Positions 1 to 14,155 of a stretch of DNA of 14,155 bases are shown here, one piece after another; position 1 is the stretch's first letter, and each line of letters opens with the position of its first letter. The translations under genes were made by a program, and so were the position numbers. Origin of the DNA: Candidatus Hydrogenedentota bacterium (GTDB taxonomy: Bacteria; Hydrogenedentota; Hydrogenedentia; Hydrogenedentales; SLHB01); the NCBI GenBank assembly GCA_034408725.1, contig JAWXCN010000188.1:1-14155 (forward strand), in the 5' to 3' direction. The notes beneath the pieces were generated by a model, which worked only from the letters and a program-made list of their open reading frames with translations, did not search any database and was not told where the DNA came from.

Positions 1-267
1 CCCAAGGGGTGGCGGGTGCTCCAGGACCAGGGTATGGCCGCGGCGGAAGTGGCTGTGTTGACGATGATGCGCGAAGGTGAGCACGAGGCCACGCCAGAGT
101 GGGACCAGCTTGCCGAGGCGATGAAGAAAGCCGGAATGGCCCTTTCGGATGCGGCGGCAAAGAAGGATTTTCCGGCAGTGCAGGCGCAGGTGACGGCGAT
201 CATCCAGTCGTGCAATACCTGCCACCAGAAGTTCGAACCCGAAACCGCGCCGGAAATTTTACCCTAA
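1..267 (+). CDS. C-terminal part of a cytochrome c'-like (class II, four-helix bundle) c-type cytochrome; 5'-truncated by the window edge
   Basis: Frame +1 is open from base 1 (PKGWRVLQDQGM...) to TAA at 265-267. The Ala-rich helical sequence has a single CxxCH heme motif (CNTCH, 211-225) close to the C-terminus, preceded by 'LSDAAAKKDFPAVQAQVTAIIQS', the typical class II cytochrome c layout. Confidence 0.7.
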   Translation, partial: PKGWRVLQDQGMAAAEVAVLTMMREGEHEATPEWDQLAEAMKKAGMALSDAAAKKDFPAVQAQVTAIIQSCNTCHQKFEPETAPEILP

Positions 268-333
268 CGGAGCGGCAGGCGCGCTGTTGCGTGCAGTTTG
301 GGCGTTTCTTCGAACTCAGCAATCCAACAGAGT

Positions 334-381
334 GGGCTTCGACCGGCGTCGCACCGGCGCTTGGCGAAGCCCGTATTTTTT
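334..381 (+). terminator. Probable intrinsic (rho-independent) terminator downstream of the cytochrome gene
   Basis: GGGCTTCG (334-341) pairs with CGAAGCCC (365-372). The interior extends the stem with G-U pairs (CCGGCGTCG/CGGCGCTTGG), and it is followed by GTATTTTTT (T6 at 376-381). Confidence 0.6.
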
Positions 382-383
382 GA

Positions 384-409
384 CGCTCGCGCGAGAACCA
401 GCGCGAGCG
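384..409. repeat. Perfect 9-bp GC-rich inverted repeat (hairpin, 8-nt loop)
   Basis: CGCTCGCGC (384-392) - GAGAACCA - GCGCGAGCG (401-409). Confidence 0.7.
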
Positions 410-422
410 CCAATTCCAAACA

Positions 423-451
423 TTGACCGTTTTTTCCCCGCTTGCTAAGAT
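423..451 (+). promoter_or_regulatory. Sigma70-type promoter with extended -10 upstream of hpf
   Basis: TTGACC (423-428), a 17-nt spacer, TG at 443-444 and TAAGAT (446-451). The -10 ends about 40 nt upstream of the hpf start codon. Confidence 0.7.
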
Positions 452-479
452 CGTGATTGGCGCTACTTTAATTTTGATC

Positions 480-485
480 GGAGGT
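480..485 (+). promoter_or_regulatory. Shine-Dalgarno sequence of hpf
   Basis: GGAGGT 8 nt upstream of ATG 494. Confidence 0.8.
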
Positions 486-493
486 AACTCGCA

Positions 494-1039
494 ATGCGTG
501 TATCCATCGCAGCGCGGCATCTGGACATGACGGATGCCATGCGAACTCATGTAGAATCCCAACTCGACAAAGTGCGGCACCATTTTGATCGGGTGATCGA
601 CGTCGATGTCGTGCTCAGTGTCGAGAAACACCGGCACACGGCCGACATCACACTTCATGCCAACGGCGTGCGCATCCACGGCAAAGACACTTCGAGCGAC
701 ATGTACGTATCGGTAGACACCGTCGTCGACAAAATTGACCGTCAGATACTGCGGTTCAAAGGCCGGAACCACCGCTACCAACCGCGCAAAGGGAAGTTGG
801 GGGAGGTTTCTGAACTCGAGCAGGCCGACGTCGCCGCCGCGGACGTTGCTGAACCGGCTGCGCGCAGGATCGTTCGCGAACCGATTTCGGTCAAACCGAT
901 GAGCGTGGACGAAGCGGCCATGCAGCTTGAGTTGCGCAACGACGCGTTCCTGGTATTCCGCAACGCGGACACGCAGGAAGTGAACGTGATCTACGGTAAA
1001 CACGACGGAACGGTCGCGCTGGTGGAACCCGAGAAATAG
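494..1039 (+). CDS. hpf: Ribosome hibernation promoting factor, long form (HPF/RaiA/YvyD family)
   Basis: N-terminal S30AE domain (IAARHLDMTDAMRTHVESQLDK...DMYVSVDTVVDKIDRQI) plus the C-terminal dimerisation domain (KPMSVDEAAMQLE...FLVFRNADTQEVNVIY). 181 aa, strong SD. Confidence 0.95.
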   Translation: MRVSIAARHLDMTDAMRTHVESQLDKVRHHFDRVIDVDVVLSVEKHRHTADITLHANGVRIHGKDTSSDMYVSVDTVVDKIDRQILRFKGRNHRYQPRKGKLGEVSELEQADVAAADVAEPAARRIVREPISVKPMSVDEAAMQLELRNDAFLVFRNADTQEVNVIYGKHDGTVALVEPEK

Positions 1040-1100
1040 CATCAACGTGTCACGCGCACAATGCGGCCTGTGGTTTATCAGCGCCGCCGCGGGGTAACAG

Positions 1101-2069
1101 ATGGACACACAAAGCCTTCCGGTAAACCGGAAGAGCAGCATCGCCATTGCGCGCCTGCTGGATGAAATGGCGGACGACCTCGAACTCGAAGTCGTCGCCG
1201 GTTTCCAGGGCATTGGCCGGCCCGTCTATGTCCAGGACATCAACCGCCCTGGCCTCGCCATCGGCGGCTACCTCGACTATTTTGCGAGCGATCGTGTGCA
1301 GATTCTGGGCAACACCGAAATCCATTATATGGAACAGCTCTCGCCATCGGCGTTGCAGCACCGTTTCGAGAGCATGTTTTCGTTTGAGATTCCGGCGTTT
1401 GTGTTGTCGCGCAATTTGATGCCGAGCAACATCGTGCTCGATCTCTGCAACCGCAGGGGCATTCCCGTGCTGCGCAGCCGCCGCTCGACGGATGAAGTCA
1501 TCAGTCGCATTATTCTATTTCTGGCCGAAGAGTTTTCGCCGGAAACGATTGTCCACGGCACCGTGGTTGATTGTTATGGCGTGGGGTGTTTGATTGTGGG
1601 CGCGCCCGGCGTGGGTAAAAGTGAAACTGCGCTGGAACTTGTTGAGCGCGGGCATCGTCTGGTTGCCGATGACGTGGTTGCGTTAAAGCGCCGGCGTGAA
1701 GATTCGTTGTACGCCGAATCCTCGCCGGTGATCGAACATCACATGGAAATTCGCGGAATCGGGATTATTGATATCAAGAGCGTCTACGGCGTCGGGCGCG
1801 TGCGCAATTCCAAGCGTATCGGAATGCTGATCGAGCTCGAAGAGTGGAGCAAGGAATCCCAGTACGACCGTACCGGCCTTTCCGACGAATATATGACAAT
1901 CCTCGGCGTGCGAATTCCGTACCTGTTGATTCCGGTGCGGCCTGGTCGAAACATTGCGATTATTCTCGAAGTTGCCGCGCTCAACCATCGTTTGAAAGAA
2001 TTGGGAATCCACCCTGCGCAGGAGTTGAATCAACGTCTTCTGACGCTCATGACGGATACGGACGGCTGA
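1101..2069 (+). CDS. hprK: HPr kinase/phosphorylase (full length)
   Basis: N-domain motif INRPGLAIGGY...RVQILG, Walker A GAPGVGKSETALELVERGHRLVADD, signature MEIRGIGII, and PVRPGRNIAIILEVAA. Confidence 0.97.
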   Translation: MDTQSLPVNRKSSIAIARLLDEMADDLELEVVAGFQGIGRPVYVQDINRPGLAIGGYLDYFASDRVQILGNTEIHYMEQLSPSALQHRFESMFSFEIPAFVLSRNLMPSNIVLDLCNRRGIPVLRSRRSTDEVISRIILFLAEEFSPETIVHGTVVDCYGVGCLIVGAPGVGKSETALELVERGHRLVADDVVALKRRREDSLYAESSPVIEHHMEIRGIGIIDIKSVYGVGRVRNSKRIGMLIELEEWSKESQYDRTGLSDEYMTILGVRIPYLLIPVRPGRNIAIILEVAALNHRLKELGIHPAQELNQRLLTLMTDTDG

Positions 2070-2146
2070 CGCCGCTCGCGCCTCCGTTGTCATTGTAAAC
2101 CAGCCTGAAATAAGCACTTATATGCTCAGTTCCGGCCAGCGGCCTT

Positions 2147-2176
2147 TTGCATCCCAGTGCCGCTATGCAGTACGAT
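2147..2176 (+). promoter_or_regulatory. Possible internal sigma70-type promoter for ptsH-ptsI-dxr-rseP
   Basis: TTGCAT (2147-2152), an 18-nt spacer and TACGAT (2171-2176), within the 212-bp hprK-ptsH intergenic region. Confidence 0.4.
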
Positions 2177-2281
2177 ACACAGCTTGCCAACCGGGCATGG
2201 CGATTGACCACGAGGCTTGCGAACCGCCGCGTTTTTTGAGTCAACGGCAGTTTCGCTTTTCCAGACGTTAGATTGGGAGCG

Positions 2282-2551
2282 ATGGAACACACGGAAGAAA
2301 TGCAAATCATCAACGCGCTCGGCCTGCACGCCCGACCCGCGGCGTCACTGGTGCAGACGGTGTTGAAATTCAAATGCGACGTTTATATTTCGTTGAATAG
2401 TCATCGTGTGAATGCGAAGAGCATCATGGGACTGCTGACACTCGCGGCGGCGCACGGCAGCACCATGATCGTGACATGCACCGGATCAGACGCCGAGGAG
2501 GCCCTGTGCGCTGTCCGTGACCTTGTCCAGTCCGGATTTGGTGAAATGTAG
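2282..2551 (+). CDS. ptsH: Phosphocarrier protein HPr
   Basis: GLHARPAA (His15 site) and [11 protein letters not shown] (Ser46 site, the HprK target). ATG 2282 gives a typical 89-aa HPr and is preferred over TTG 2273. Confidence 0.95.
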
Positions 2552-4332
2552 TGGAGATCGTCTTGCATGGAGAGGGCGTATCGCCCGGGATTGCAATCGG
2601 TCCAGCGTTGTCCTTTGGGGTAAAGACTTTCGATGTCTCGCGCTACGCAGTGACCGATGCAGAGGCCGAACTGCGGCGGTTCGAGAAAGCCGTTACCGCG
2701 GTGCGCGGCGAATTGCAAAAACTCCATGCAAGGACAGCGGAAGCCATTGGCGAATACCATGCGGACATATTCAAGGCGCATTTGCTGTTGCTGGATGACG
2801 TGGCATTGCGCGAAGAAGTCGAGCGCCGGGTCTGTACCGAGCGGGTTAACCCGGAATATGTGGTGCATGACGTGATAGTGCGTTACAGGGCGATCATAGA
2901 AACGGTGGACGATCCGGTGTTCCGCGAGCGGTCGCAGGATTTTGTAGACGTTGGCAATCGTGTATTGGGGCGTTTACTGAACGCCGATCTCGATACGCTC
3001 GAAGACCTGGACAATCCTTGCATCGTCGTGACCCACGAATTGTCTCCGTCGGACGCCGCGAAGCTTGACCGTGAAAACGTATTGGGTATTGCGACAGACG
3101 TCGGCGGTCCCACGTCTCACACCGCGATACTTGCCCGCGCATTCGAGATACCCGCGGTCGTGGGGCTTCGCTTCGTTGCGTCCTATGCATTGCCGAACGA
3201 TGTCATTGTGTTGGATGGCACCAACGGCGACGTTATCATCAGGCCGACGCCAGAAACGCTTGCGCAATACGAAGCGAGAAGAGAGCGCGAAACGCGCGGG
3301 CGAGCGGCGCTGTTGGCCGCGGAGTGGCGTCCGAGCGTGACAGTAGACGGTCACGAAGTGCCGACCATGGCCAACATTGAACTGCGCGAAGAACTGTCGG
3401 TCAGCCTGCGCATGAAGGCCCAGGGCATTGGCTTGTATCGTACCGAGTACCTTTTTTTGAATCGCAATGGCATGCCTTCCGAGGAAGAGCAATACGAGGC
3501 CTATTCCGAAGCAGCCCAGGCCATGAACCCGGCATCGGTGACCTTGCGCACGCTGGACATCGGCGGCGACAAATTGATGCCGTCATTGCAGTCCACTCCG
3601 GAAGCGAACCCGCAGTTGGGTTGGCGGTCCGTCCGGGTTTGCCTGGAGCGGCCCGACATTTTCTCCGCTCAACTGCGCGCAATGATCCGGGCGAGCGTGC
3701 ACGGCAACGTACAGATCATGTTTCCCCTGATTAGCGGCATGGAAGAATTGAGGCGGGTGAAACAGACGGTGCGCGAAGTATACGCGGATTTGGAAAGCCG
3801 TGGCGTGCCGTTCAAGAAGGACATTCCTATCGGCACCATGATTGAAGTGCCGAGCGCGGTTGAACTGGCGGACCTGCTCGCGAAAGAGTGCGACTTCTTT
3901 AGCATCGGCACAAACGACCTGATTCAATATTCCCTTGCGGTTGACCGCGGCAACGAGCGCATCGCGCACATGTACGAGCCGTGCCATCCCGCCGTGCTGC
4001 GCATGATCTGGCGCACGGCGCGCGCGGCGAAAGCGGCCAAGATTCCCGTCAGCGTGTGCGGCGAGATGGCGGGCGATCCGTTGTTCAGCGAAGTCCTGAT
4101 TGGGCTGGGCATAACTTCTTTGAGCATGTCGGCGGTTTCGATTCCGCAGGTCCGGGCAGAGGTATCGTACGTCCGGTATTCGCTGGCGCGGAAGTTTGCC
4201 GTGCGGATGTTGCGCACGCCAACATGCATCGATATTCGCGACCACATGCAGCGCCGTACCAAACAACGCAAAGCACTGGGCGCATACCTGGAAGTCTTCT
4301 CGGACGACGAACCCGTCAAGGCGCGACGATGA
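2551..4332 (+). CDS. ptsI: PEP-protein phosphotransferase (PTS Enzyme I), with no N-terminal GAF domain
   Basis: Motifs [21 protein letters not shown] (phospho-His), [30 protein letters not shown] and VCGEMAGDP (catalytic Cys). The GTG start overlaps the ptsH stop (TAGTG). Confidence 0.97.
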
Positions 4333-5489
4333 CCATGCGGCGGCAGGTGACGATACTCGGCTCGACTGGTTCAATTGGCAAGAGCGCGTTGGATGTCGTG
4401 CGCCATTATCCAGATAGGTTTGACGTCGTCGGGCTCGCGGCGCACTCGAACGTGGAACTCCTGGCCAAGCAGGTGCGTGAGTTCAAACCGGAACACGTCG
4501 CGGTGGCCGACGCGGAGGCGGGGCTGCGCCTCGCATCGCTGTTGCCCGGCACGCACGTTGCCGCTGGCGCAGGAGCGCTCGAATCGATTGCCGCGGCCCC
4601 GGCGGATATTGTCTTGTGCGGCATGGTTGGCGCGTGCGGTTTGCGCCCCGTGTTGAGCGCCATAGATGCGGGAAACGCAATCGCGTTGGCAAACAAGGAA
4701 CCGCTGGTCATGGCGGGCGCGCTGATTATGGAGCGCGCAAAGGCAAACGGTGTGCGCGTGATTCCTGTTGATAGCGAGCACAACGCGATCTTTCAATGTC
4801 TGCACGGCCACCGCATCGAGGACGTGCGCTGCATTCATCTCACTGCGTCCGGCGGACCGTTTTACGGACGTCCCCGGGAATCGCTCGCCGGTGTGACACC
4901 CGGCCAGGCGACACGCCATCCCACGTGGGACATGGGCGCGAAGATCAGCGTTGATTCCGCGACGTTGATGAACAAAGGCCTCGAGGTCGTCGAAGCCATG
5001 TGGTTGTTCGGATTGCCACTCGAGAAAATCGAAGTGGTCATCCACCCGCAGAGTATTGTGCATAGTCTGGTCGAATTTACCGATGGCAGCATCCTCGCGC
5101 ATCTCGGCCCAACGAACATGAAATTTCCGATTCAGTACGCGTTGACCTGGCCGGACCGCGTGCCGGAGCCGATGGGCCGGCTCGACTTGACGGCAATGCG
5201 GGAGCTAACATTCGCGAAACCCGATTTTAGCGAGTTCCCCTGTCTTGCGTATGCACTTGAAGCGGCACGGACCGGAGGTACTGCGCCAGCGATTCTTAAC
5301 GCCGCGAACGAATGCGCCGTGGAAGCGTTTTGTAACGGAAGTATTGATTTCCTGCGCATCAGCGATGTGGTGCGTGAGGTATTGGACGATTGCGAGGCGT
5401 CGCCCGATGTGACGCTGGAAACTGTGTTGGACGCCGACCGGGCCGCGCGCGCGCGGGCCGGTCACGTCATGGCAGGTCTTGGAGTATAA
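4329..5489 (+). CDS. dxr: 1-deoxy-D-xylulose 5-phosphate reductoisomerase (MEP pathway)
   Basis: Motifs [56 protein letters not shown] and LNAANE. The start is ATG 4329, overlapping the ptsI stop (ATGA), or ATG 4335, rather than the ORF-track start at 3981. Confidence 0.97.
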
Positions 5490-5492
5490 GCT

Positions 5493-7463
5493 GTGAGCTA
5501 TTTATTTGATATCGCCATTTTCATTTTGGTGCTCGGCGAACTCGTATTTTTTCACGAGCTCGGACACTTTCTTGCGGCTAAAGCCTGCGGGATTTATTGC
5601 GAACGGTTCAGCCTCGGCATGCCGCCGCGCTTGTTCGGATTCAAATTCGGAGAAACCGACTACTGCGTTGGAATGCTTCCGATCGGAGGATACGTGAAAA
5701 TGGCGGGACAGGAAGACGTCCCGTTGAGCGACGACGAGCGGAAGGACCAGTACGGTAGCATTCCTCCCGAGCGCTGGTTCATGAACAAGCCCGTTTGGCA
5801 ACGCGTGATCGTGATCGCCGCGGGCCCGTTTATGAACATTGTGCTCGCGATCATGATCTACGCGACGCTTGTGGGCTTTGGCGCCGAATTCCCGGAGCAG
5901 AAACACGATAACCGGATTGGCTACGTGGAGGAAAAATCACCCGCGGCCACCGCGCCCCTGTTTGTGCAATCAGCACCCGGCGCCGCGATCAATTTCACTG
6001 CCACGCCCGACGAGACGGGATGGAAACCAGGTGATCGTATTCTCGCAATTGATGAGAACCCGGTCTCCAATATCATGGAAGTTGCGATAGAAGGCGTGCT
6101 CAGCGGTGGTGCTCTTGTTGTGGCGTCCATTGAGCGCACGAATCAGGATGGAACAACGCCCCGGTACCTTTCGCCGATTCAACCCCGCATGCTGGAGGAC
6201 AGCGAGCACGTGCGGTTGGGTATCGAAGCGTTCAGTACCGCTCTCGTGAAAAACGTGCTTGAAGATATGCCCGCCAAGAGCGCGGGCATCCGGGAAGGCG
6301 ATATTATTGAGCGCGTAAATGGCCAGGTGGTTGACAGCAGCACCTTTCGCGAGTTGGTTTCGAGCGCGGCCCCGGGTGAACAGGTACAGACGGAAATTTT
6401 GAGGGATGGTTCGCGCATCACCGTGGCGCTAACGCCCCGTACGGTCGGCGGCTTTGATGAAATTATTGTTCTCCCGCGGCCGGATTGGGACGATTACATC
6501 GATTACACACAACCGGTAACTGTTCAGGAAGAGGATACCTCGAAACTTACCGGGACAGGTTTCCAGACTGGCGACATCGTAGTTTCTGTCAATGGGGAAA
6601 AACCGGGGGCGGCTGTCATTAAGAACCTGATGTCCCAGCCCGATACCGCAAAGTTACAGGTCGTGATCGAACGCCGGGGCTTATGGGGTTACGGCGCGGC
6701 TATCCAGCTAACGCTGCCTGACGTGGAAACAAAACAGTTTCTGCAAGCAATTACTGCGTTCGACATTGACATGCCACCCACGGTTGCGAGCATCTCATCA
6801 GAGCAAAGCAAGGCGACGGGGCTGGAGACGAAAGACATTATCGAAGAAGTCGATGGAAAACCCGCAACTCTTGCATTGCTTCGGGAAACGTTGAACACCC
6901 GCATCGGACAAACAGTTTCGGTCAAGGTACGCAAGCCCGCGATCGGATACGGCGTAATGCGAAGCGAATCCGCCAAGGACGCAACGCTCGCGATCACGAG
7001 TTCGGGCATGGTCGGTATTCAGTGGGACCAGCAGAAAGCTTTTTATCGCGCGCCAGTCGGACAAATCTTTCCGCAAGCCATGCGCGAGACGTGGAAAATG
7101 ATGAAGCTGACGGTGCGTACTTTGCAAACCTTGATCAGCGGGCGGATAAGCGCAAAAGAGTTGGGCGGCCCGATCATGATCTACCAGGCGACAACGAATG
7201 CCGCAAAGTTCAGCGGGTACGTAGGTCTGATGGAGACGACGGCGTTTATCAGCGTGAACCTCGCGATTTTTAACCTGCTTCCGTTGCCCGTGCTGGATGG
7301 CGGCCACCTGCTGTTTCTCACGATAGAAAGTATCCGGCGGAAACCAGTCAGCGCGAAGGTGATGGAATGGGTGCAACAAGCCGGGCTTGTTTTTATCATC
7401 GGCCTAATGCTGTTTGTAACTTACAATGATATCCGGCGCTGGTTCGAGAGCTTGATTCCGTAG
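5493..7463 (+). CDS. rseP: RIP (site-2) zinc metalloprotease RseP with an expanded multi-PDZ region
   Basis: Motifs FFHELGHF (HExxH), LPIGGYVKM, AGPFMN, LGGPIMI and NLLPLPVLDGGHL, in the canonical position after dxr. 656 aa with four GxxxGD-I-like PDZ signatures. Confidence 0.93.
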   Translation: MSYLFDIAIFILVLGELVFFHELGHFLAAKACGIYCERFSLGMPPRLFGFKFGETDYCVGMLPIGGYVKMAGQEDVPLSDDERKDQYGSIPPERWFMNKPVWQRVIVIAAGPFMNIVLAIMIYATLVGFGAEFPEQKHDNRIGYVEEKSPAATAPLFVQSAPGAAINFTATPDETGWKPGDRILAIDENPVSNIMEVAIEGVLSGGALVVASIERTNQDGTTPRYLSPIQPRMLEDSEHVRLGIEAFSTALVKNVLEDMPAKSAGIREGDIIERVNGQVVDSSTFRELVSSAAPGEQVQTEILRDGSRITVALTPRTVGGFDEIIVLPRPDWDDYIDYTQPVTVQEEDTSKLTGTGFQTGDIVVSVNGEKPGAAVIKNLMSQPDTAKLQVVIERRGLWGYGAAIQLTLPDVETKQFLQAITAFDIDMPPTVASISSEQSKATGLETKDIIEEVDGKPATLALLRETLNTRIGQTVSVKVRKPAIGYGVMRSESAKDATLAITSSGMVGIQWDQQKAFYRAPVGQIFPQAMRETWKMMKLTVRTLQTLISGRISAKELGGPIMIYQATTNAAKFSGYVGLMETTAFISVNLAIFNLLPLPVLDGGHLLFLTIESIRRKPVSAKVMEWVQQAGLVFIIGLMLFVTYNDIRRWFESLIP

Positions 7464-7526
7464 CGGCGAGGGTGCGAGAGCGGGAACTGGGCGCGGCTGC
7501 GCCTTTGGTAGGAGAGCGGAAGAGGC

Positions 7527-8831
7527 ATGGGCGCCATTACGTGCAAGTTTGGGGGGACCTCGCTCGCGGATGCGAAATGTTTCCGCGACGTGGTCAATAT
7601 CATTCAATCGAATCCCGATCGCCGCTACATCGTTCCGTCTGCGCCGGGAAAGCGCAAACCCGATGACAAAAAAATTACGGATTTGTTATATGCCTGGCAC
7701 AGTCTGTTGAGCCAGGACCTCGATCCCGCGCAACCTCGCGGCATTATCGCGGACCGGTTCGGGGAACTGGCCGCGGTATTGAATGTTGATTTCCCGATTC
7801 AGGAACATCTTGATCGAATTGCGGCCGACGCAATGCAGCATGACGAACCCGATTTTCTGGCATCCCGTGGCGAGTACCTGAGCGGGCACTTGCTCTCGCG
7901 CATGTTGGGCGCGACCTTCGTCGATCCCGCGGAATGCATTTTGTTTGACGACGACGGTGATCTCGATCCCAGGACTTACGAGATACTGGGCAATCGGTTG
8001 AAAGGCGAGGGTTTGTTTGTCGTGCCGGGTTTTTACGGCGCGCAGGCGGACGGATGTATCAAGACCTTTTCACGCGGTGGCAGCGACGTAACGGGCTCGA
8101 TCGTTGCGCGCGCGTCGAAGTCGCGGTTGTATGAGAACTGGACGGACGTCTCCGGGTTCCTGGTGGCCGACCCGCGCATTGTCCCGGATTCGCGTGGAAT
8201 TGCCGAGGTGACTTACAAAGAACTCCGCGAACTTTCGTACATGGGCGCGAGCGTGCTGCATGACGAAGCCATCTTTCCGGTGCGCGAGCCGGGCATTCCA
8301 ATCAACATTCGCAATACAAAAAAACCGGACCATCCCGGCACCATGATCCTCGCCGAACGCGCCGCGAAAGAGCCTATTGTGGGAATTGCCGGACGCACGG
8401 GCTTCACCATGATCAATATTGAAAAAGCCCTCATGAATAAGGAACGCGGGTTTGGCCGGCGGATGTTGACCGTTCTCGAGGAGCATGGCGTGAGCTGGGA
8501 GCTTATGCCGTCGGGGATTGATAATCTATCCGTCATCATCGAAGACGAAGAATTGCTGCACAAGACAAACACGATCCTCAAGGCGATCGAGCGGACGTGC
8601 CAGCCCGACCGTCTTTCGGTTACAGAAGGCCTGGCGCTGATCGCGACCGTGGGCCAGGGTATGGCGGGGACGGTCGGAATCGCGGCGCGGCTGACCACGG
8701 CGCTCGCCGATGCGAAGGTGAACATACGCGTGATCGATCAGGGCTCGTCGGAAAACAACATCATCGTCGGCGTCGATGACGATGATCTCGAGAAGGCGGT
8801 GCGCGCCATTTACGGCGCGTTCAGCGAATGA
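7527..8831 (+). CDS. lysC: Aspartate kinase with C-terminal ACT domains (resembles the B. subtilis YclM/AK III type)
   Basis: Motifs KFGGTSLAD, VPSAPGKR, SRGEYL, TFSRGGSDVTG, ENWTDVSG..ADPRIV and ELRELSYMGASVLH, plus ACT-like repeats (PSGIDNLSVII; VGQGM...IDQGSSENNIIVGV). Confidence 0.93.
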   Translation: MGAITCKFGGTSLADAKCFRDVVNIIQSNPDRRYIVPSAPGKRKPDDKKITDLLYAWHSLLSQDLDPAQPRGIIADRFGELAAVLNVDFPIQEHLDRIAADAMQHDEPDFLASRGEYLSGHLLSRMLGATFVDPAECILFDDDGDLDPRTYEILGNRLKGEGLFVVPGFYGAQADGCIKTFSRGGSDVTGSIVARASKSRLYENWTDVSGFLVADPRIVPDSRGIAEVTYKELRELSYMGASVLHDEAIFPVREPGIPINIRNTKKPDHPGTMILAERAAKEPIVGIAGRTGFTMINIEKALMNKERGFGRRMLTVLEEHGVSWELMPSGIDNLSVIIEDEELLHKTNTILKAIERTCQPDRLSVTEGLALIATVGQGMAGTVGIAARLTTALADAKVNIRVIDQGSSENNIIVGVDDDDLEKAVRAIYGAFSE

Positions 8832-8840
8832 GGAGCATGG

Positions 8841-10289
8841 ATGCGCCGCACGAAGATCATCTGCACGCTTGGACCCAGTTCAAATAGCCGTGAAACGGTA
8901 GACGCGCTTGTCGGGGCGGGCATGGACGTTGCCCGGCTGAATTTTTCCCACGGCACGCACGACATTCATCGGACGACCTACGAAACCGTGCGAGCGTCCG
9001 CCGCTGCGCACAACCGCAGCGTGGCCATTCTTATGGACTTGCAGGGGCCCAAAATCCGCACCGGAAAACTGCAAGATGGACAGCCTGTCGAGCTTGTCCA
9101 GGGTGCGGACATCATCATTACTACGGAACAGATCCTGGGTTCCGTGAGCCGCGTATCGACGACCTACGAATCGCTTGCCGGCGAAATCAAACCGGATGAC
9201 CGCATTCTGATAGCCGATGGGACGATGGAATTGCGCGTCAATCGCGTCGAGCCGCCGGACGTGTATTGCACCGTGGTGCGCGGCGGGATGCTGGGCGAGA
9301 ACAAGGGCATCAATTTGCCCGGCGTGGCGATCACCGCGCCCAGCCTGACGGAAAAGGACATCGTGGATCTCGCGTTCGGCCTCGAACTCGGCGTGGACTA
9401 TGTCGCGCTTTCATTTGTGCGCACACCTGGCGACGTGGTGGATTTGAAGTGCCGGATCGCGGCGCTCGGAAAAAATACTCCGGTCATTGCAAAAATAGAG
9501 CGTCCCGAGGCCCTTTCCCGTTTTCACGAAATCGTGGAATCCGCGGACGCTATCATGGTGGCGCGCGGCGATCTTGGCGTGGAAGTGGAACTGCACCGCG
9601 TGCCGCAAATTCAGAAGACGCTGATACGCATGTGCAACGATCTCGGCGTCCCCGTTATTACGGCGACCCAGATGCTCGAATCGATGATGACGAATTCCCG
9701 GCCTACGCGCGCCGAGGCGGCGGACGTCGCGAACGCAATCTACGACGGCACAGACGCGGTGATGTTGTCCGGCGAAACGGCCAATGGATTGTTTCCCATT
9801 CAGGCGCTCACGACGATGGCAGAAATAGCGGCGAGCGCGGACGAAGCAATCGGCGCGACTCCGCATCACGAGGTGCAAGGGCGGTTGCGCGATCACGCCA
9901 TGCGCGCCGCCGGCTTCAAGGAAGCCATCGGACAGGCGGTTGTTCGAGTGACTCAGGTCATTGATGTGAAGCGGATTGTCGTGCTCACCAAATCGGGGTT
10001 CAGCGCGATGGCCATCTCCCGGTTTCGCCCGCGGACGCCTATCACGGCGATTTCATTAAAGGAAGAGACGCAGCGCCGTTGCGCATTGTTCTGGGGCGTG
10101 GAAGCGGTCGCGTGCGTGCAGGTCGACAGTTTTTCGCAACTGGTCGTCGCGATTGACGACATCATGATCGACCGGGAACTCGCGGACGATGGCGACGCGC
10201 TGCTGATCGTCGCAGGCATTCCGCTGGGTTCGGGCGGGCGCACCAACCTGATGCATCTGCATCACGTCGGCGAGCCCAGCACGGAGTAG
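8841..10289 (+). CDS. pyk: Pyruvate kinase
   Basis: Motifs RRTKIICTLGP, ARLNFSHG, DLQGPKIR, AKIE, MVARGDLGVE, ATQMLESM and RPTRAEAADVANAIYDGTDAVMLSGETA. The SD GAGGAG overlaps the lysC stop. Confidence 0.98.
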   Translation: MRRTKIICTLGPSSNSRETVDALVGAGMDVARLNFSHGTHDIHRTTYETVRASAAAHNRSVAILMDLQGPKIRTGKLQDGQPVELVQGADIIITTEQILGSVSRVSTTYESLAGEIKPDDRILIADGTMELRVNRVEPPDVYCTVVRGGMLGENKGINLPGVAITAPSLTEKDIVDLAFGLELGVDYVALSFVRTPGDVVDLKCRIAALGKNTPVIAKIERPEALSRFHEIVESADAIMVARGDLGVEVELHRVPQIQKTLIRMCNDLGVPVITATQMLESMMTNSRPTRAEAADVANAIYDGTDAVMLSGETANGLFPIQALTTMAEIAASADEAIGATPHHEVQGRLRDHAMRAAGFKEAIGQAVVRVTQVIDVKRIVVLTKSGFSAMAISRFRPRTPITAISLKEETQRRCALFWGVEAVACVQVDSFSQLVVAIDDIMIDRELADDGDALLIVAGIPLGSGGRTNLMHLHHVGEPSTE

Positions 10290-10291
10290 GA

Positions 10292-11056
10292 ATGGTAGAC
10301 CAACCCACCCACCGCGCGCGGATTGAACCCGATTGGTACGAAGCCGCATTCGGCGATCTCTATAACGTCATCTACGCGCATCGGACGGTCGAAGCCGCCG
10401 CGCCGGAAGCGGCATTTGCCGCGCATGCGCTCGAAATGCGCGCGGACGATTGCCTTTTGGATTTGTGTTGCGGTTGCGGCCGGCACTTGTTTCATTTGAT
10501 CAAAACGGCGCCGCGCGCGGTTGGCCTCGACTTTTCGCGAGAACTGTTAACACAGGGGCGCGCACTGTTGGGTGACGCAGCGCTGCTCGTGCGCGGAGAC
10601 ATGCGCGCGCTGCCGTTCCGTGCGAGGTTTGATTGCCTCACCAACTTTTTCACCAGTTTTGGATATTTTCATGCCGGCGAGGAAAACGCGGCCGTCGCGC
10701 GAGGCATGCGCGAGGCGCTTAAGCCAGGCGGACGATTCCTCGTCGACCACGCCAATGCGGCGGATGTCCGAACGGCCTTGATACCGCAATCGACAAGACG
10801 GCAGGGTGAATATGAAATTGTCGAGGAACGGTGGGTTGATGAAGCTGCGCAGCGCGTGAATAAGGTGATGCGTATCGCGCGTGAAGGCCGCGCCGTGCGC
10901 GAAATCCACGAATCGGTGCGTCTGTATGGACCGGACGAATTGCGAATGCTGCTCATGGATGCAGGGTTGGCGGTAACGGACTTTTATGGCGATTGGTCCG
11001 GTGCGTCCTTTACAAAATCATCACCGCGCATGATCGTGCGAGGTGTCGTAGCGTGA
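10292..11056 (+). CDS. Class I SAM-dependent methyltransferase; candidate bacillithiol N-methyltransferase (NmbA-like)
   Basis: Motif I LLDLCCGCGRH, plus VGLDFS, GDMRALPF, NFFTSFGYF and LKPGGRFLVD. Its stop overlaps the bshC start (GTGA). The methyltransferase fold is well supported; the substrate is inferred from context only. Confidence 0.85.
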   Translation: MVDQPTHRARIEPDWYEAAFGDLYNVIYAHRTVEAAAPEAAFAAHALEMRADDCLLDLCCGCGRHLFHLIKTAPRAVGLDFSRELLTQGRALLGDAALLVRGDMRALPFRARFDCLTNFFTSFGYFHAGEENAAVARGMREALKPGGRFLVDHANAADVRTALIPQSTRRQGEYEIVEERWVDEAAQRVNKVMRIAREGRAVREIHESVRLYGPDELRMLLMDAGLAVTDFYGDWSGASFTKSSPRMIVRGVVA

Positions 11057-12594
11057 AATCGATTCAAGCCGATTACATTCGGGGCGCGCCGGAACTGGCG
11101 GAATTCTATGCGGGAAGTCCGCGCGAACTGTTCGATAAAAAGCCAACCGCCGGGCCATTATACCCGGGACTATGCGAGGCGCTCCGTGCGTACGGCGCGT
11201 CGATAGGCACGACCGCGCTCCCTCCCGACGGCGACGTTTCGGCGATTGTGACCGGCCAGCAACCTGTGTTGTTCACCGGCCCTCTGTACACGGTCTATAA
11301 AGCGGCTACGGCGATTCGCATTGCGGAGCGGCTCGAACAGCAGCGCGGCGCGCCCTGTGTGCCGGTGTTCTGGCTGGCGAGCGATGACCACGATTTCGCG
11401 GAAGCCCGAACCACGCACATGTTGACGAAACAGCACGAGCCGCTTGCCCTGACGTATGTGCTGAAAACGAATGCCGACGGATTCCCGATGCATCGCGTGC
11501 CGCTCGAACCTTCGTTGCACACGCTCATCGACACGATGGCCGACGCCGCTACCGGCTCGGAATATCGCGACGAAGTGCGTGCGTTTCTTCACGCGTCGCT
11601 CGACGCCGCTGTGTCCTTTTCCGATTGGAGCGCGCGGCTGCTCGCACGCCTCTTTCAAGGAACGCCGCTTCTGATCTTTACGACCGAACTTCCCGTAATG
11701 CGGGCAGCGTCAGCGCCGATCATAGAACGGGAGATCGCGGACCCACTCTGGTCGTCGACTCGGGTAAACGAAGCTGCCGCGCGACTCATTGCGCTGGGCT
11801 ACGAAGCACAGTTGGTGAAAGGGCAGGGCGACTGCGGATTCTTTCTGGAAGTCGAGGGTAAGCGTTGCAAAGTTGTGTATGAGCAGGGCGCATTCGTGTT
11901 GCCGTCGTTGGGCTGGCGATACTCCGCTGATGAATTGTTGAATACTCTGGCTGCCGAGCCGGAACGGTTCAGTCCCAACGCAGCGCTTCGCTCGGTGGTG
12001 CAACAACGCTTGTTTCCCGTTCACGCATATGTTGGCGGGCCGGGGGAGATCGCGTACTGGGGCCAATTCAAGCCTTTGTTCGACAACGTAAGCGCGCCGA
12101 TGCCTGTCGTGTACCCGCGGGCGCAAGTTCGGCTCAGTTCAACAAAACTTAACAAGTTGCTGACGCGCTGCGGATTGAACGCGGACGATTTTTCCGCGCC
12201 GTTGGAACAGATCGAGGAAAAAGCACTCGCTACGGCAGCGGCCGGACCTGCGCTGGAGGCGTTGGCGCGGTGCCGTGCGGAGATTGCGCAATCGGTTGGC
12301 ATCCTCGAACAAACACTATCAACGGTGAAAGCGCCGCCCCTCGCGGTCGGTGATCGTGTGTTTGGAGAATTGGACAAGGCCCGGCGCACGCTCGAACGCG
12401 CGGATTCGGCGAAAGTCGAAACAGTTCGGCAAAACGTGATGCGGCTCGCAAACACCTTCGCGCCGTGGCGCAAACCGCAAGAGCGTGTTTATACTGTGTT
12501 CTCTTTTTTGTTTGAACACGGCTGGGACCTGGTCCCTCGTATCATCCGTGAGATTGATATCGATTCCTTCACCACAGGCGAGATTGAACTGTGA
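11053..12594 (+). CDS. bshC: Bacillithiol biosynthesis cysteine-adding enzyme BshC
   Basis: Motifs IVTGQQPVLFTGPLYTVYKA, PVFWLASDDHDFAE, RFSPNAALRSVVQ, YVGGPGEIAYWGQ and the C-terminal PQERV. The start is set at GTG 11053, overlapping the upstream TGA. Confidence 0.93.
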   Translation: MKSIQADYIRGAPELAEFYAGSPRELFDKKPTAGPLYPGLCEALRAYGASIGTTALPPDGDVSAIVTGQQPVLFTGPLYTVYKAATAIRIAERLEQQRGAPCVPVFWLASDDHDFAEARTTHMLTKQHEPLALTYVLKTNADGFPMHRVPLEPSLHTLIDTMADAATGSEYRDEVRAFLHASLDAAVSFSDWSARLLARLFQGTPLLIFTTELPVMRAASAPIIEREIADPLWSSTRVNEAAARLIALGYEAQLVKGQGDCGFFLEVEGKRCKVVYEQGAFVLPSLGWRYSADELLNTLAAEPERFSPNAALRSVVQQRLFPVHAYVGGPGEIAYWGQFKPLFDNVSAPMPVVYPRAQVRLSSTKLNKLLTRCGLNADDFSAPLEQIEEKALATAAAGPALEALARCRAEIAQSVGILEQTLSTVKAPPLAVGDRVFGELDKARRTLERADSAKVETVRQNVMRLANTFAPWRKPQERVYTVFSFLFEHGWDLVPRIIREIDIDSFTTGEIEL

Positions 12595-13298
12595 ACGACG
12601 ATTCGCCTTTTGACGTCCTGGCGGTTGGCGCGCATCCCGACGATGTCGAGGTGGGTATTGGCGGCATTGTCGCCAACCTTGTGCGCCGGGGAAAACGGGT
12701 TGCCATTCTCGATTTGACGGAAGGCGAGATGGGCACCCGCGGTACTGTCGCGGAACGTCGCGGCGAGGCTACCGCAGCCGCCGCGATGCTGGGCGTCTCG
12801 CGCAGGGTGAATGCGAAGTTGCCCGATGGCGGCGTTGCAAACGATCAAACGATGCGGCGCGCAGTTGTGACGCTGTTGCGGGAATTGCGTCCGGCGATCC
12901 TGATCGCGCCCATGAACAATGATCGCCATCCCGATCATGACGCGGCGCATTTTCTCGTTCGCGACGCAAACTATCTCGCGGGCCTTGCGCGGCTCGACAC
13001 TGCACAGCCGCCCCATCGGGCCGCTCAGGTCTATTACTATCGCGTCTACGTTGACGCGACGCTGCCGGGCGCGGTGATCGACATCAGCGATACCTTTGAC
13101 ACCAAGCTGGCCGCGTTGCGCGCGTATGTGTCGCAATTCTTCAATCCGGCCTACGCGGGCGCGGAAACTTATGTGTCATCCGAGAAATTCTGGAACGCAA
13201 TTACGACACGCGCCGCATATTGGGGCAATCGCATCGGCGCGGCGCATGGCGAGCCCATTTATTGCGATGGCCCAATTGGACTGAAGACCCTCGAGTGA
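12591..13298 (+). CDS. bshB1: N-acetyl-alpha-D-glucosaminyl L-malate deacetylase (PIG-L/LmbE family)
   Basis: Motifs VGAHPDDVEVGIGG, DLTEGEMGTRG, DRHPDH and AYVSQF. 235 aa, located between bshC and bshA; the GTG start overlaps the bshC stop (GTGA). Confidence 0.93.
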   Translation: MNDDSPFDVLAVGAHPDDVEVGIGGIVANLVRRGKRVAILDLTEGEMGTRGTVAERRGEATAAAAMLGVSRRVNAKLPDGGVANDQTMRRAVVTLLRELRPAILIAPMNNDRHPDHDAAHFLVRDANYLAGLARLDTAQPPHRAAQVYYYRVYVDATLPGAVIDISDTFDTKLAALRAYVSQFFNPAYAGAETYVSSEKFWNAITTRAAYWGNRIGAAHGEPIYCDGPIGLKTLE

Positions 13299-13356
13299 CA
13301 CCGTTGCGCAACGCGCGGGCCGCAACCATATCGCTCGAATCAGCGAAGGAGAACGA

Positions 13357-14155
13357 ATGCGAATTGGCATCACCTGTTATGCATCCGCGGGCGGAAGCGG
13401 CGTGCTGGCGACCGAACTCGGAATCGCCCTTGCCGAGCGGGGGCACACGGTCCACTTTGTAAGTTTTGAGTTGCCGTTCCGGTTGCAGGGGTTCCACCAG
13501 AACATCCTGTACCACTCCGTGGATTTTGTAACCTATCCACTGTTTCCCCATCCGCCATATTCGCTTGCGCTGACGACGAAGATGGCCGAAGTTGCCGAAG
13601 AACACAACATCCAGATATGGCACGCGCACTACGCCATTCCCCACGCCGTGTGCGCCATTCTTGCGCGCGACATGATGCCAGCGGGCAAACGCTTCAAACT
13701 TGTGACAACGCTTCACGGCACGGACATTACGCTCGTCGGCACCGACCCCGGGTTCTTCCGCCTAACAAAGTACGCGATGGAATCGAGCGACGCGGTTACG
13801 TCCGTGTCCGAATGGTTGACTGAAGAGACGCGGCGCGAGTTCAAACTCAATGTGCCGGTGCGGACAATTTACAATTTCGTGAATCTGGATAAATTCGGAA
13901 AACGCTCGGTAGAGCGGTGCAACCTCGCTGAGAAGGACGAGAAGATCGTCATGCACATCTCGAACTTTCGTCCGGTGAAACGGGTGACGGACGTGGTGCG
14001 CGCGTTCAAAAAGATTAGCGACCGGGTTCCGTCGCGACTGGTAATGGTGGGAGACGGACCGGAACGGCTTTCCGCGGTGGGCGTGGCCCGGCAACTGGGT
14101 ATTACGGACCGTATCCGGTGGCTCGGGAATAACGAGAATATCGAGATGATACTGC
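13357..14155 (+). CDS. bshA: N-acetyl-alpha-D-glucosaminyl L-malate synthase BshA (GT4 glycosyltransferase); 3'-truncated by the window edge
   Basis: Manual translation from ATG 13357 (SD AAGGAG at 13346-13351): MRIGITCYASAGGSGVLATELGIALAERGHTVHF...YPLFPHPPYSLAL...HAHYAIPHA...TTLHGTDITLVG...HISNFRPVKRVTDVV...VGDGPE. No stop occurs before the window end. Confidence 0.95.
   Translation, partial: MRIGITCYASAGGSGVLATELGIALAERGHTVHFVSFELPFRLQGFHQNILYHSVDFVTYPLFPHPPYSLALTTKMAEVAEEHNIQIWHAHYAIPHAVCAILARDMMPAGKRFKLVTTLHGTDITLVGTDPGFFRLTKYAMESSDAVTSVSEWLTEETRREFKLNVPVRTIYNFVNLDKFGKRSVERCNLAEKDEKIVMHISNFRPVKRVTDVVRAFKKISDRVPSRLVMVGDGPERLSAVGVARQLGITDRIRWLGNNENIEMIL

Follow-up and report, generated by a model that had tools for sequence, protein, structure and literature searches.

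At the end of the 14,155-nt stretch of Candidatus Hydrogenedentota DNA analysed here (the window), positions 10292–14155 of the plus strand very probably encode, as judged from sequence, a complete pathway to N-methyl-bacillithiol (N-Me-BSH), in which the three core bacillithiol (BSH) genes are preceded by a methyltransferase of the NmbA type. In the proposed pathway, BshA would join GlcNAc and L-malate, BshB1 would remove the acetyl group, BshC would add cysteine to give BSH, and the methyltransferase would then methylate the amino group of that cysteine, yielding N-Me-BSH. The original prediction for this DNA had invoked both the order BshA, BshB, BshC and the conversion of BSH into N-Me-BSH by NmbA, and each agrees with the published accounts consulted, the latter with PMC6282198 and PMC12719100. 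N-Me-BSH is a known bacterial antioxidant thiol; the enzymes of the window are ordinary and the biology is expected.

Gene organization

The ORF list places four co-directional plus-strand genes in 10292–14155, namely those of the methyltransferase, BshC and BshB1 followed by a 5′-terminal portion of bshA, which are set out below with their junctions and their upstream neighbour.

8841–10289, plus strand: pyruvate kinase gene (pyk), upstream neighbour given as context (TIGR01064, 529.6 bits)
10292–11056, plus strand: nmbA-like methyltransferase gene, 254 aa, ATG start; class I SAM-dependent methyltransferase, predicted bacillithiol N-methyltransferase (ORF, translation, Pfam)
11053–11056, plus strand: first GTGA overlap, GTG the bshC start and TGA the methyltransferase stop (sequence)
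11053–12594, plus strand: bshC, 513 aa from GTG 11053; bacillithiol cysteine-adding enzyme (NCBIfam; Pfam PF10079 and PF24850)
12591–12594, plus strand: second GTGA overlap, GTG the bshB1 start and TGA the bshC stop (sequence)
12591–13298, plus strand: bshB1, 235 aa, GTG start; GlcNAc-malate deacetylase (NCBIfam; Pfam PIG-L)
13299–13356, plus strand: bshB1/bshA spacer, 58 nt, with a Shine-Dalgarno-like AAGGAG at 13346–13351 (sequence)
13357–14155, plus strand: bshA, GlcNAc-malate synthase; first 266 codons only, the listed ORF 13357–14154 being open at the window end (NCBIfam)

The contiguous bshC-bshB1-bshA run with a methyltransferase ahead of it, as originally described, is borne out by scores above the NCBIfam equivalog cut-offs for all three products: 361.6 bits for BshC against TIGR03998 (cut-off 265.8), 254.2 bits for BshB1 against TIGR04001 (cut-off 182.5) and 372.5 bits for BshA against TIGR03999 (cut-off 273.7), the last over profile positions 1–270 of 375, the gene being cut by the window end. 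This partial BshA is 87% identical to the full-length, 380-residue homologue of survey locus L037. The gene order is the reverse of the pathway order, with the last enzyme first.

A GGAG at 10283–10286 lies ahead of the methyltransferase start, and a GAGG at 11040–11043 ahead of the bshC GTG at 11053. The bshC ORF as listed spans 10993–12594, and GTG 11053 is favoured as the likely true start because BshC tblastn alignments begin at residue 1 in five of six loci of the Hydrogenedentota clade; in loci of that clade, too, the methyltransferase/bshC junctions overlap or abut. The overlap at 11053–11056, which had been proposed to couple the two genes, is indeed made of a start and a stop codon. 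The two 4-nt GTGA overlaps would couple translation, and the methyltransferase and BshC should be co-produced, since their genes are joined in this way. The GTGA at 12591–12594, the 58-nt spacer with its AAGGAG before bshA and the gap of 2 nt between the pyk stop codon (10287–10289) and the methyltransferase start were absent from the original prediction.

The four genes come at the end of a long co-directional array comprising hpf, hprK, ptsH, ptsI, dxr, rseP, an aspartate kinase gene and pyk, and nothing visible sets them apart as a transcription unit of their own. A simple scan of 10000–13400 found no promoter-like site, and the terminator-like matches it gave there were weak and all intragenic. 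From gene spacing we infer that the cluster is co-transcribed, probably together with pyk, whose adjacency to the methyltransferase gene recurs in loci L037 and L002. The earlier claim of a single unit encoding the entire methylated-thiol pathway is supported in its content, an NmbA-type methyltransferase with the full bsh set, and fails as regards an isolated unit, given that the cluster ends a longer array. Scanning the window for Rfam families and tRNAs gave no matches, and a 337-aa minus-strand ORF at 200–1213 was treated as spurious because it has no Pfam or NCBIfam match and overlaps hpf and hprK.

The same setting lends itself to another reading, namely that the methyltransferase is unconnected with bacillithiol and its gene simply happens to have pyk on one side and bshC on the other within a crowded array of housekeeping genes: it begins 2 nt past the pyk stop, and the entire window is one co-directional array. 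The family assignment and the survey of other genomes both bear on this point.

Family assignment of the methyltransferase

Pfam matches the methyltransferase to generic class I SAM-methyltransferase models only (Methyltransf_25, E 3e-13; Methyltransf_11; Methyltransf_31), as would suit an enzyme foreign to the pathway, and no NCBIfam cut-off was reached, the top match being a daptide methyltransferase model, which scored 64.7 bits where its cut-off is 175. Against that reading, its closest solved relative, by phmmer on the PDB set, is a validated BSH methyltransferase, the NmbA of Chlorobaculum tepidum (CtNmbA, CT1040; PDB 9RI2, chain 9ri2_A; E 9.9e-32, 113.3 bits), followed by DesVI (3bxo, 70.6 bits) and CypM (7wzg, 62.3 bits). 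CtNmbA N-methylates BSH in vitro (PMC12719100). Both proteins are class I SAM methyltransferases, of 254 and 266 residues, that align end to end (residues 6–249 with 6–257) at approximately 32% identity (about 79 of 244 positions, counted by hand in the printed alignment).

A family profile built on 66 representatives, 35–50% identical to the window methyltransferase, scores 9ri2 at 248.5 bits over its full length (E 4.4e-73), with the next chain at 108.9 bits. The same profile gives 180.5–309.5 bits for the window enzyme and 79 methyltransferases of the survey loci described below, L079 being left out here as well as from the trees and the conserved-column count; 20 of these 80 score below 248.5, and CtNmbA therefore lies within the family range. 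The published ortholog criteria relative to CT1040 are E ≤ 1e-20, similar length, coverage > 80% and identity > 25%, and the window enzyme falls inside all of them, its E-value coming from phmmer on the PDB set and those of the paper from BLAST. Methyltransferases taken as orthologues score 135.3 bits (Paenibacillus amylolyticus, which the published NmbA dataset enters with NmbA), 119.5 bits (Chitinophaga) and 130.1 and 135.7 bits (Ignavibacteria) against CtNmbA; by this measure the distance of the window enzyme from CtNmbA resembles that of accepted orthologues. A homologue search with the Ignavibacteria methyltransferase of L036 returned no Chlorobi-named NmbA among the 120 matches listed.

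By sequence, then, the methyltransferase is a member of the NmbA family, as had been suspected. The accompanying proviso, that an enzyme other than NmbA might make a different BSH derivative, appears unlikely to apply because 9RI2 is the best relative, the profile separates it from the next chain by 248.5 to 108.9 bits, and every conserved column of the family is kept.

Conserved residues, structure and product

The window methyltransferase retains all 35 columns that are at least 90% conserved in 73 methyltransferases from outside Hydrogenedentota, and all 18 invariant columns of the 66-sequence alignment, read by eye, are identical in CtNmbA. Motif I, LLDLCCGCG at residues 55–63, corresponds to the VLDIAxGxG of NmbA and to the class I form (V/I/L)(L/V)(D/E)(V/I)-GxGxG (PMC12719100). 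The aromatic pair of the FGYF motif, Y134/F135 in CtNmbA, is Y125/F126 in the window enzyme, and R70/H71, W16 and K198 have their counterparts in R64/H65, W15 and K191. The docking methods of the 9RI2 paper name W16, W20, H31, R70 and K198 (PMC12719100); with Y134 and F135 these make seven residues of the SAM and substrate sites, five of which are kept, while W20 and H31 are replaced by A19 and A29 in the alignment as read by eye.

These two pocket or entry residues are one reason to consider that the enzyme acts in the BSH pathway and yields something else: N,N-dimethyl-BSH, a precursor methylated ahead of the BshC ligation step (GlcN-Mal on its amine, or the cysteine donor), or BSH methylated at another atom. 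A methyltransferase coupled or fused to BshC, rather than to a BSH-consuming enzyme, would suit action on a BshC substrate; in vitro, NmbA can methylate a by-product that is a secondary amine (PMC12719100); and the BshC reaction was still without in vitro reconstitution in a 2018 review (PMC5790435), our literature search for later reconstitution returning nothing relevant. We nevertheless hold such a product to be improbable. The conserved core is identical to that of the family and of CtNmbA, and the alignment consensus lines give alanine for the family at the positions of A19 and A29, which are therefore no peculiarity of the Hydrogenedentota clade. Deletion of nmbA in C. tepidum leads BSH to pile up, and N-methyl-cysteine was never detected (PMC6282198); CtNmbA and PpNmbA, the enzyme of Paenibacillus polymyxa, come from distant phyla and both yield N-Me-BSH (PMC12719100). 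The reported specificity of NmbA is SAM-dependent N-methylation of the BSH cysteine, with BSSB, glycine and GSH described as non-substrates. Finally, bshC-linked and unlinked methyltransferases interleave in both of our quick trees, in which the window enzyme sits in a clade of seven Hydrogenedentota-type methyltransferases, all bshC-linked (SH-aLRT 99 and 98). The trees have no outgroup and a weakly supported backbone, and Paenibacillaceae, Chitinophaga and Ignavibacteria sequences stand in for CtNmbA, PpNmbA and the Polaribacter NmbA.

N-Me-BSH remains the favoured product; the structure-based comparison does not single out NmbA. The AF2 model (pLDDT 93.9) has alternating strands and helices with four strands at 166–210, and in a Foldseek search with it 9ri2_A ranks 13th (E 5.3e-20, TM 0.69/0.76), after CypM and CcbJ, so that NmbA is not set apart from other cap-bearing N-methyltransferases. 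This low rank may arise because AlphaFold mis-predicts the NmbA cap (a narrow "basket" of four strands) and because 24 residues are unmodelled in the CtNmbA crystal, both as described in PMC12719100.

Conservation of the linkage to bshC

The neighbourhood survey that the original prediction had proposed covered the best 80 of 451 confirmed relatives, a biased sample found with two peptide patterns in a search based on an alignment of 29 closer sequences. Within these best 80, bshC lies directly downstream of the methyltransferase gene in 43 loci, comprising 40 of the 72 with at least 1500 nt downstream (same strand) and 3 of the 8 shorter ones, and the full order methyltransferase-bshC-bshB1-bshA is present in 22 of the 60 with at least 3800 nt downstream. 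NCBIfam models identify BshC in 43 of 43 cases (33 above cut-off), BshB1 in 27 of 27 (26) and BshA in 24 of 24 (23). The full order occurs in Hydrogenedentota, Acidobacteriota, Planctomycetota, Chloroflexota and Fibrobacterota; the four-gene arrangement is widespread and not special to this bacterium, and it exceeds chance, since numerous unrelated genomes share this order. Four of 46 longer relatives (P0135, P0272, P0274 and P0277; 807–941 aa) are methyltransferase-BshC fusion proteins.

A methyltransferase unrelated to bacillithiol would accord with the 37 of the best 80 loci that have no downstream bshC match, five of them too short (< 1500 nt downstream) to judge. Adjacency to bshC in six or more named phyla, where the neighbouring genes otherwise differ, together with four fusion clusters and the kinship with CtNmbA, makes that explanation extremely improbable, and we retain the NmbA assignment.

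One may go further and ask whether NmbA and BshC form a physically coupled pair in Hydrogenedentota and several other phyla, BSH being methylated on leaving BshC. The overlapping genes, the adjacency in 43 of the best 80 of 451 relatives and the natural fusions are what suggest it; from such genomic context we consider the idea tentative and rather unlikely to be correct. Were it true, N-Me-BSH would be the sole free thiol in these organisms and the fusion enzymes would offer a new handle on BshC.

Implications

Predicted use of N-Me-BSH is extended here to the candidate phylum Hydrogenedentota, which is not among the 43 validly published phyla covered by the published RefSeq survey. Full clusters were also found in loci labelled Chloroflexota and Fibrobacterota, which that survey lists as having neither pathway. 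As reported, nmbA was originally defined by co-occurrence, and its assignment is supported because the gene is in many cases physically linked to bshC and in some is fused with it, a linkage of which we found no mention in the NmbA literature consulted. A practical annotation rule follows, whereby a "class I SAM-dependent methyltransferase" gene beside bshC is an nmbA candidate. The compact four-gene unit could serve as a handy cassette for heterologous N-Me-BSH production, and the fusions are candidates for studies of BshC.

Comparison with known systems

Structurally, the AF2 model is matched best by the four-strand cap N-methyltransferases of sugars and peptides DesVI (3BXO), TylM1 (3PFG), CypM (7WZG) and CcbJ (4HGY), which share its fold and are all N-directed. 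They differ in sequence, at no more than 70.6 bits pairwise and 100.9 on the family profile versus 113.3 and 248.5 for NmbA, and we know of no link between them and bsh genes.

In Bacillus subtilis, bshA and bshB1 are co-transcribed in one operon with mgsA, and bshC lies elsewhere, with panE (PMC5790435), in agreement with the separation that the original prediction had cited. There, too, BSH is the product of these three enzyme families, whereas the window has all three genes contiguous in the order bshC-bshB1-bshA with the methyltransferase ahead. B. subtilis is not known to have such a methyltransferase.

The closest parallels are the NmbA enzymes of C. tepidum and P. polymyxa. In C. tepidum nmbA likewise shares a genome with bshA, bshB and bshC. 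Its four genes carry the distant locus tags CT0548, CT1419, CT1558 and CT1040, in contrast to the contiguous, overlapping genes of the window, in which the bsh genes lie directly downstream of the methyltransferase; the proteins differ, beyond their identity of about a third, in the alanines that replace W20 and H31. Unlike the published NmbA systems, that of the window belongs to a phylum outside the RefSeq survey, and its methyltransferase activity is a predicted one.

Gene content and transcriptional organization

By the ORF list, all 14.2 kb of the window form a single co-directional gene array on the + strand, in which a 254-residue class I SAM methyltransferase (MT), a predicted bacillithiol (BSH) N-methyltransferase, is followed by three bsh genes.

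Features of the window (assigned by Pfam/NCBIfam down to pyruvate kinase, from the ORF list for MT, and by NCBIfam for the bsh genes, with bit score against equivalog cut-off)
1-267, +, cytochrome c' C-terminal fragment
494-1039, +, hibernation factor HPF (hpf)
1101-2069, +, HprK (hprK)
2273-2551, +, HPr (ptsH)
2551-4332, +, PtsI (ptsI)
end at 5489, +, Dxr (dxr)
5493-7463, +, RseP (rseP)
7527-8831, +, aspartate kinase
8841-10289, +, pyruvate kinase (pyk)
10292-11056, +, MT, 254 aa
11053-12594, +, bshC, 513 aa, start GTG 11053 (361.6 vs 265.8)
12591-13298, +, bshB1 (254.2 vs 182.5)
13357 to window end, +, bshA, first 266 codons (372.5 vs 273.7)

Rfam and tRNA scans returned no RNA families or tRNAs in the window, and G+C stays at 55-62% throughout, with no shift at the MT-bsh region. 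In the housekeeping array upstream (1-10289) the gaps are tiny or the genes overlap, as at the ATGA of 4329-4332 between ptsI and dxr.

The contiguity of MT, bshC, bshB1 and bshA described by the original prediction is borne out, all three bsh genes lying above their equivalog cut-offs, and the GTGA overlap that it placed between MT and bshC is present at 11053-11056. A second GTGA overlap (12591-12594) joins bshC to bshB1, and a 58-nt spacer with AAGGAG precedes bshA. GTG 11053 is the likely start of bshC, given that BshC alignments start at residue 1 in five of six Hydrogenedentota-clade loci; the MT/bshC junctions of those relatives likewise overlap or abut. The "compact operon" of the original prediction stands as to adjacency and overlaps, but probably not as to its extent: MT starts 2 nt after the pyk stop, a simple scan finds no promoter-like site in 10000-13400, and the spacing makes it probable that these four genes close a longer transcription unit.

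Identity of the methyltransferase

Pfam and NCBIfam describe MT only generically, as "class I SAM methyltransferase". Among all PDB chains, 9ri2_A matches it best, at 113.3 bits (E 9.9e-32; MT residues 6-249 against 6-257 of 266); DesVI at 70.6 bits and CypM at 62.3 bits come next. Entry 9RI2 gives the crystal structure of the BSH N-methyltransferase NmbA of Chlorobaculum tepidum (CtNmbA, CT1040), which in vitro, like the NmbA of Paenibacillus polymyxa (PpNmbA), methylates BSH, not BSSB, glycine or GSH (PMC12719100); NmbA genetics are reported in PMC6282198.

A family profile built from 66 cluster representatives, 35-50% identical to the window MT, gives 9ri2 248.5 bits (E 4.4e-73) and the next PDB chain 108.9, while the MTs of 79 related loci together with the window MT score 180.5-309.5 bits (median 272). 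With 20 of these 80 below 248.5, CtNmbA falls, by profile score, inside the range of the family. Direct scores against CtNmbA (P. amylolyticus 135.3 bits, Ignavibacteria 130.1 and 135.7, Chitinophaga 119.5, window MT 113.3) suggest that it is about equally distant from all the MTs compared. P. amylolyticus, Fontibacillus phaseoli, P. rhizosphaerae and P. turpanensis, matched here by species, not accession, are NmbA-listed in the Supplementary Dataset of PMC12719100. Identity between the window MT and CtNmbA comes to about 79 of 244 positions (counted by hand on the printed alignment), and the 18 columns that are invariant in the family alignment are all common to CtNmbA when read by eye off the pairwise alignment. 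In 73 MTs of other phyla, 35 columns reach 90% conservation or more, and the window MT retains all 35; it also qualifies as an NmbA ortholog under the published definition (PMC12719100). As far as sequence can tell, it is an ordinary NmbA-family member, as the proposal of an N-methyl-BSH (N-Me-BSH) pathway had it, and the more exciting alternative, that it makes a different methylated BSH derivative, becomes unlikely on that account.

The AF2 model of the window MT (pLDDT 93.9, pTM 0.89) retrieves 9ri2_A with Foldseek at rank 13 (E 5.3e-20, TM 0.69/0.76), after CypM and CcbJ; since AlphaFold mis-predicts the NmbA cap topology and the crystal lacks 24 residues (PMC12719100), structure speaks neither for nor against NmbA membership. 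W20 and H31, among five CtNmbA residues named in the docking methods of PMC12719100, are both replaced in the window MT by alanine, which is the family consensus at these positions.

Linkage to bsh genes in other genomes

Two family peptide patterns, run against 185,579 species genomes, yielded 451 confirmed relatives, of which the best 80 were retained and their neighbours called by tblastn with the window proteins (L-numbers below denote these loci). Of these best 80 of 451, 72 have 1500 nt or more of sequence beyond MT; bshC follows MT immediately, on the same strand, in 40 of them, and it lies directly downstream in 3 of the 8 with less sequence. The linkage to bsh genes that the original prediction proposed to survey is thus found in 43 loci from several phyla. 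For 60 loci 3800 nt or more are available past MT, and 22 of these show the full MT-bshC-bshB1-bshA order; the total over all loci is 24. NCBIfam confirms every called neighbour: BshC in 43/43 (33 at or above cut-off; two of the 10 below it are cut by contig ends), BshB1 in 27/27 (26 above) and BshA in 24/24 (23 above).

Loci by phylum label among the best 80 of 451 relatives (loci; MT-bshC; full four-gene order)
Acidobacteriota (mostly Thermoanaerobaculia): 20; 14; 14
Gemmatimonadota: 14; 13; 0
Planctomycetota: 7; 4; 4
Chloroflexota: 8; 2; 2
Hydrogenedentota: 5; 5; 2
Fibrobacterota: 1; 1; 1
Latescibacterota: 1; 1; 0
Bacillota (Paenibacillaceae): 10; 0; 0
Ignavibacteriota: 3; 0; 0
Bacteroidota: 1; 0; 0

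In Gemmatimonadota, 13 of 14 loci (e.g. L040 7001-9348, L054, L046, L055) carry MT-bshC without bshB1 or bshA downstream; for eight of them the downstream sequence extends to 3800 nt or more. It is thus the MT-bshC pair, rather than all four genes, that forms the conserved core of the linkage. Full clusters occur in L013 and L030 (Chloroflexota/Anaerolineae MAGs) and L062 (a Fibrobacterales MAG), the phyla being the MAG labels as given; Chloroflexota and Fibrobacterota are listed by the 2025 RefSeq survey as lacking the BSH and N-Me-BSH pathways (PMC12719100).

The proteins nearest to the window MT are 50-63% identical to it, and seven of the eight organism-named matches come from Candidatus Hydrogenedentes/Hydrogenedentota MAGs. 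Two quick trees, which contain no CtNmbA, PpNmbA or outgroup and have a weak backbone, place it within a starred clade of seven Hydrogenedentota-type sequences (SH-aLRT 99 and 98); in the same trees bshC-linked and unlinked MTs interleave, with 8 and 10 label changes, at least three of them forced by starred branches. One Hydrogenedentota MAG, L037, is syntenic across the window (PtsI-Dxr-RseP-AspK-Pyk-MT-BshC-BshB1-BshA, protein identity 54-87%); its housekeeping order from ptsI on is the same, as it is in L001 and L003 but for the lack of pyk. In a basal unlinked clade of Zixibacteria and one Ignavibacteria MAG (L029 6120-6998, L036 2660-3526) agmatinase precedes MT, and in two other Ignavibacteria loci, L045 and L065, recR does; no bsh genes lie near MT in any of these.

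Fusion proteins and other partners

Four protein clusters among 46 longer relatives, with lengths of 807, 807, 820 and 941 aa, fuse MT to BshC in the order in which the genes lie. One of them, P0274, shares 44% identity with the window MT over its MT part (residues 8-246), and its BshC part (372-790) can be aligned with residues 61-490 of the window BshC.

A second recurrent partner is an MBL-fold metallo-hydrolase of about 325 aa. In 9 of 10 Paenibacillaceae loci (L009, L015, L019, L020, L033, L034, L043, L073 and L078, at about 7730-8790 in each) its gene comes directly after the NmbA-family gene, on the same strand, and an MBL-fold domain is fused to MT in proteins P0173 and P0273, the latter with the JGI name 'hydroxyacylglutathione hydrolase'. 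The Paenibacillaceae proteins score 115-148 bits against NF053820, below its cut-off; they are possibly thiol-ester hydrolases acting on (N-Me-)BSH conjugates. A HAD-family phosphatase is fused N-terminally to the NmbA-family domain in P0226 and P0275 (466 aa), and a HAD hydrolase gene lies just upstream of MT in L080 (1786-2622). Many tandem double-methyltransferase clusters (P0130, P0276-P0313; about 500-580 aa), which share 30-36% identity with the window MT, probably belong to a different family.

Proposed pathway and comparison with known systems

By sequence, the window carries a complete BSH gene set together with the gene of an NmbA-family enzyme, in a layout suited to coupled translation. 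BshA, BshB1 and BshC would make BSH, and MT would then move one methyl group from SAM to the cysteine amine of BSH, by analogy with CtNmbA and PpNmbA. Coupled expression would hold MT in step with BshC, so that the working thiol would be N-Me-BSH rather than BSH; physical contact between the two proteins is a speculative extension.

A search of open-access papers and preprints found three that name nmbA together with bsh genes and none on Hydrogenedentota together with bacillithiol, and the 2025 survey, which covers the 43 validly published phyla in RefSeq, has no Hydrogenedentota entries in its dataset (PMC12719100). Synteny and adjacency go unmentioned in the accessible part of PMC6282198, as do operon, gene cluster and neighbourhood in that of PMC12719100 ("operon" also in its supplements), and operon, adjacency, fusion, neighbourhood and synteny in the commentary PMC6336425. 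In the 2025 dataset the adjacency of nmbA and bshC is implicit, without remark in the accessible text: Candidatus Palauibacter species have consecutive or nearly consecutive NmbA and BshC accessions (PMC12719100). Mildly new are the phylum Hydrogenedentota itself and the conserved nmbA-bshC(-bshB1-bshA) linkage, with its fusions, across several phyla.
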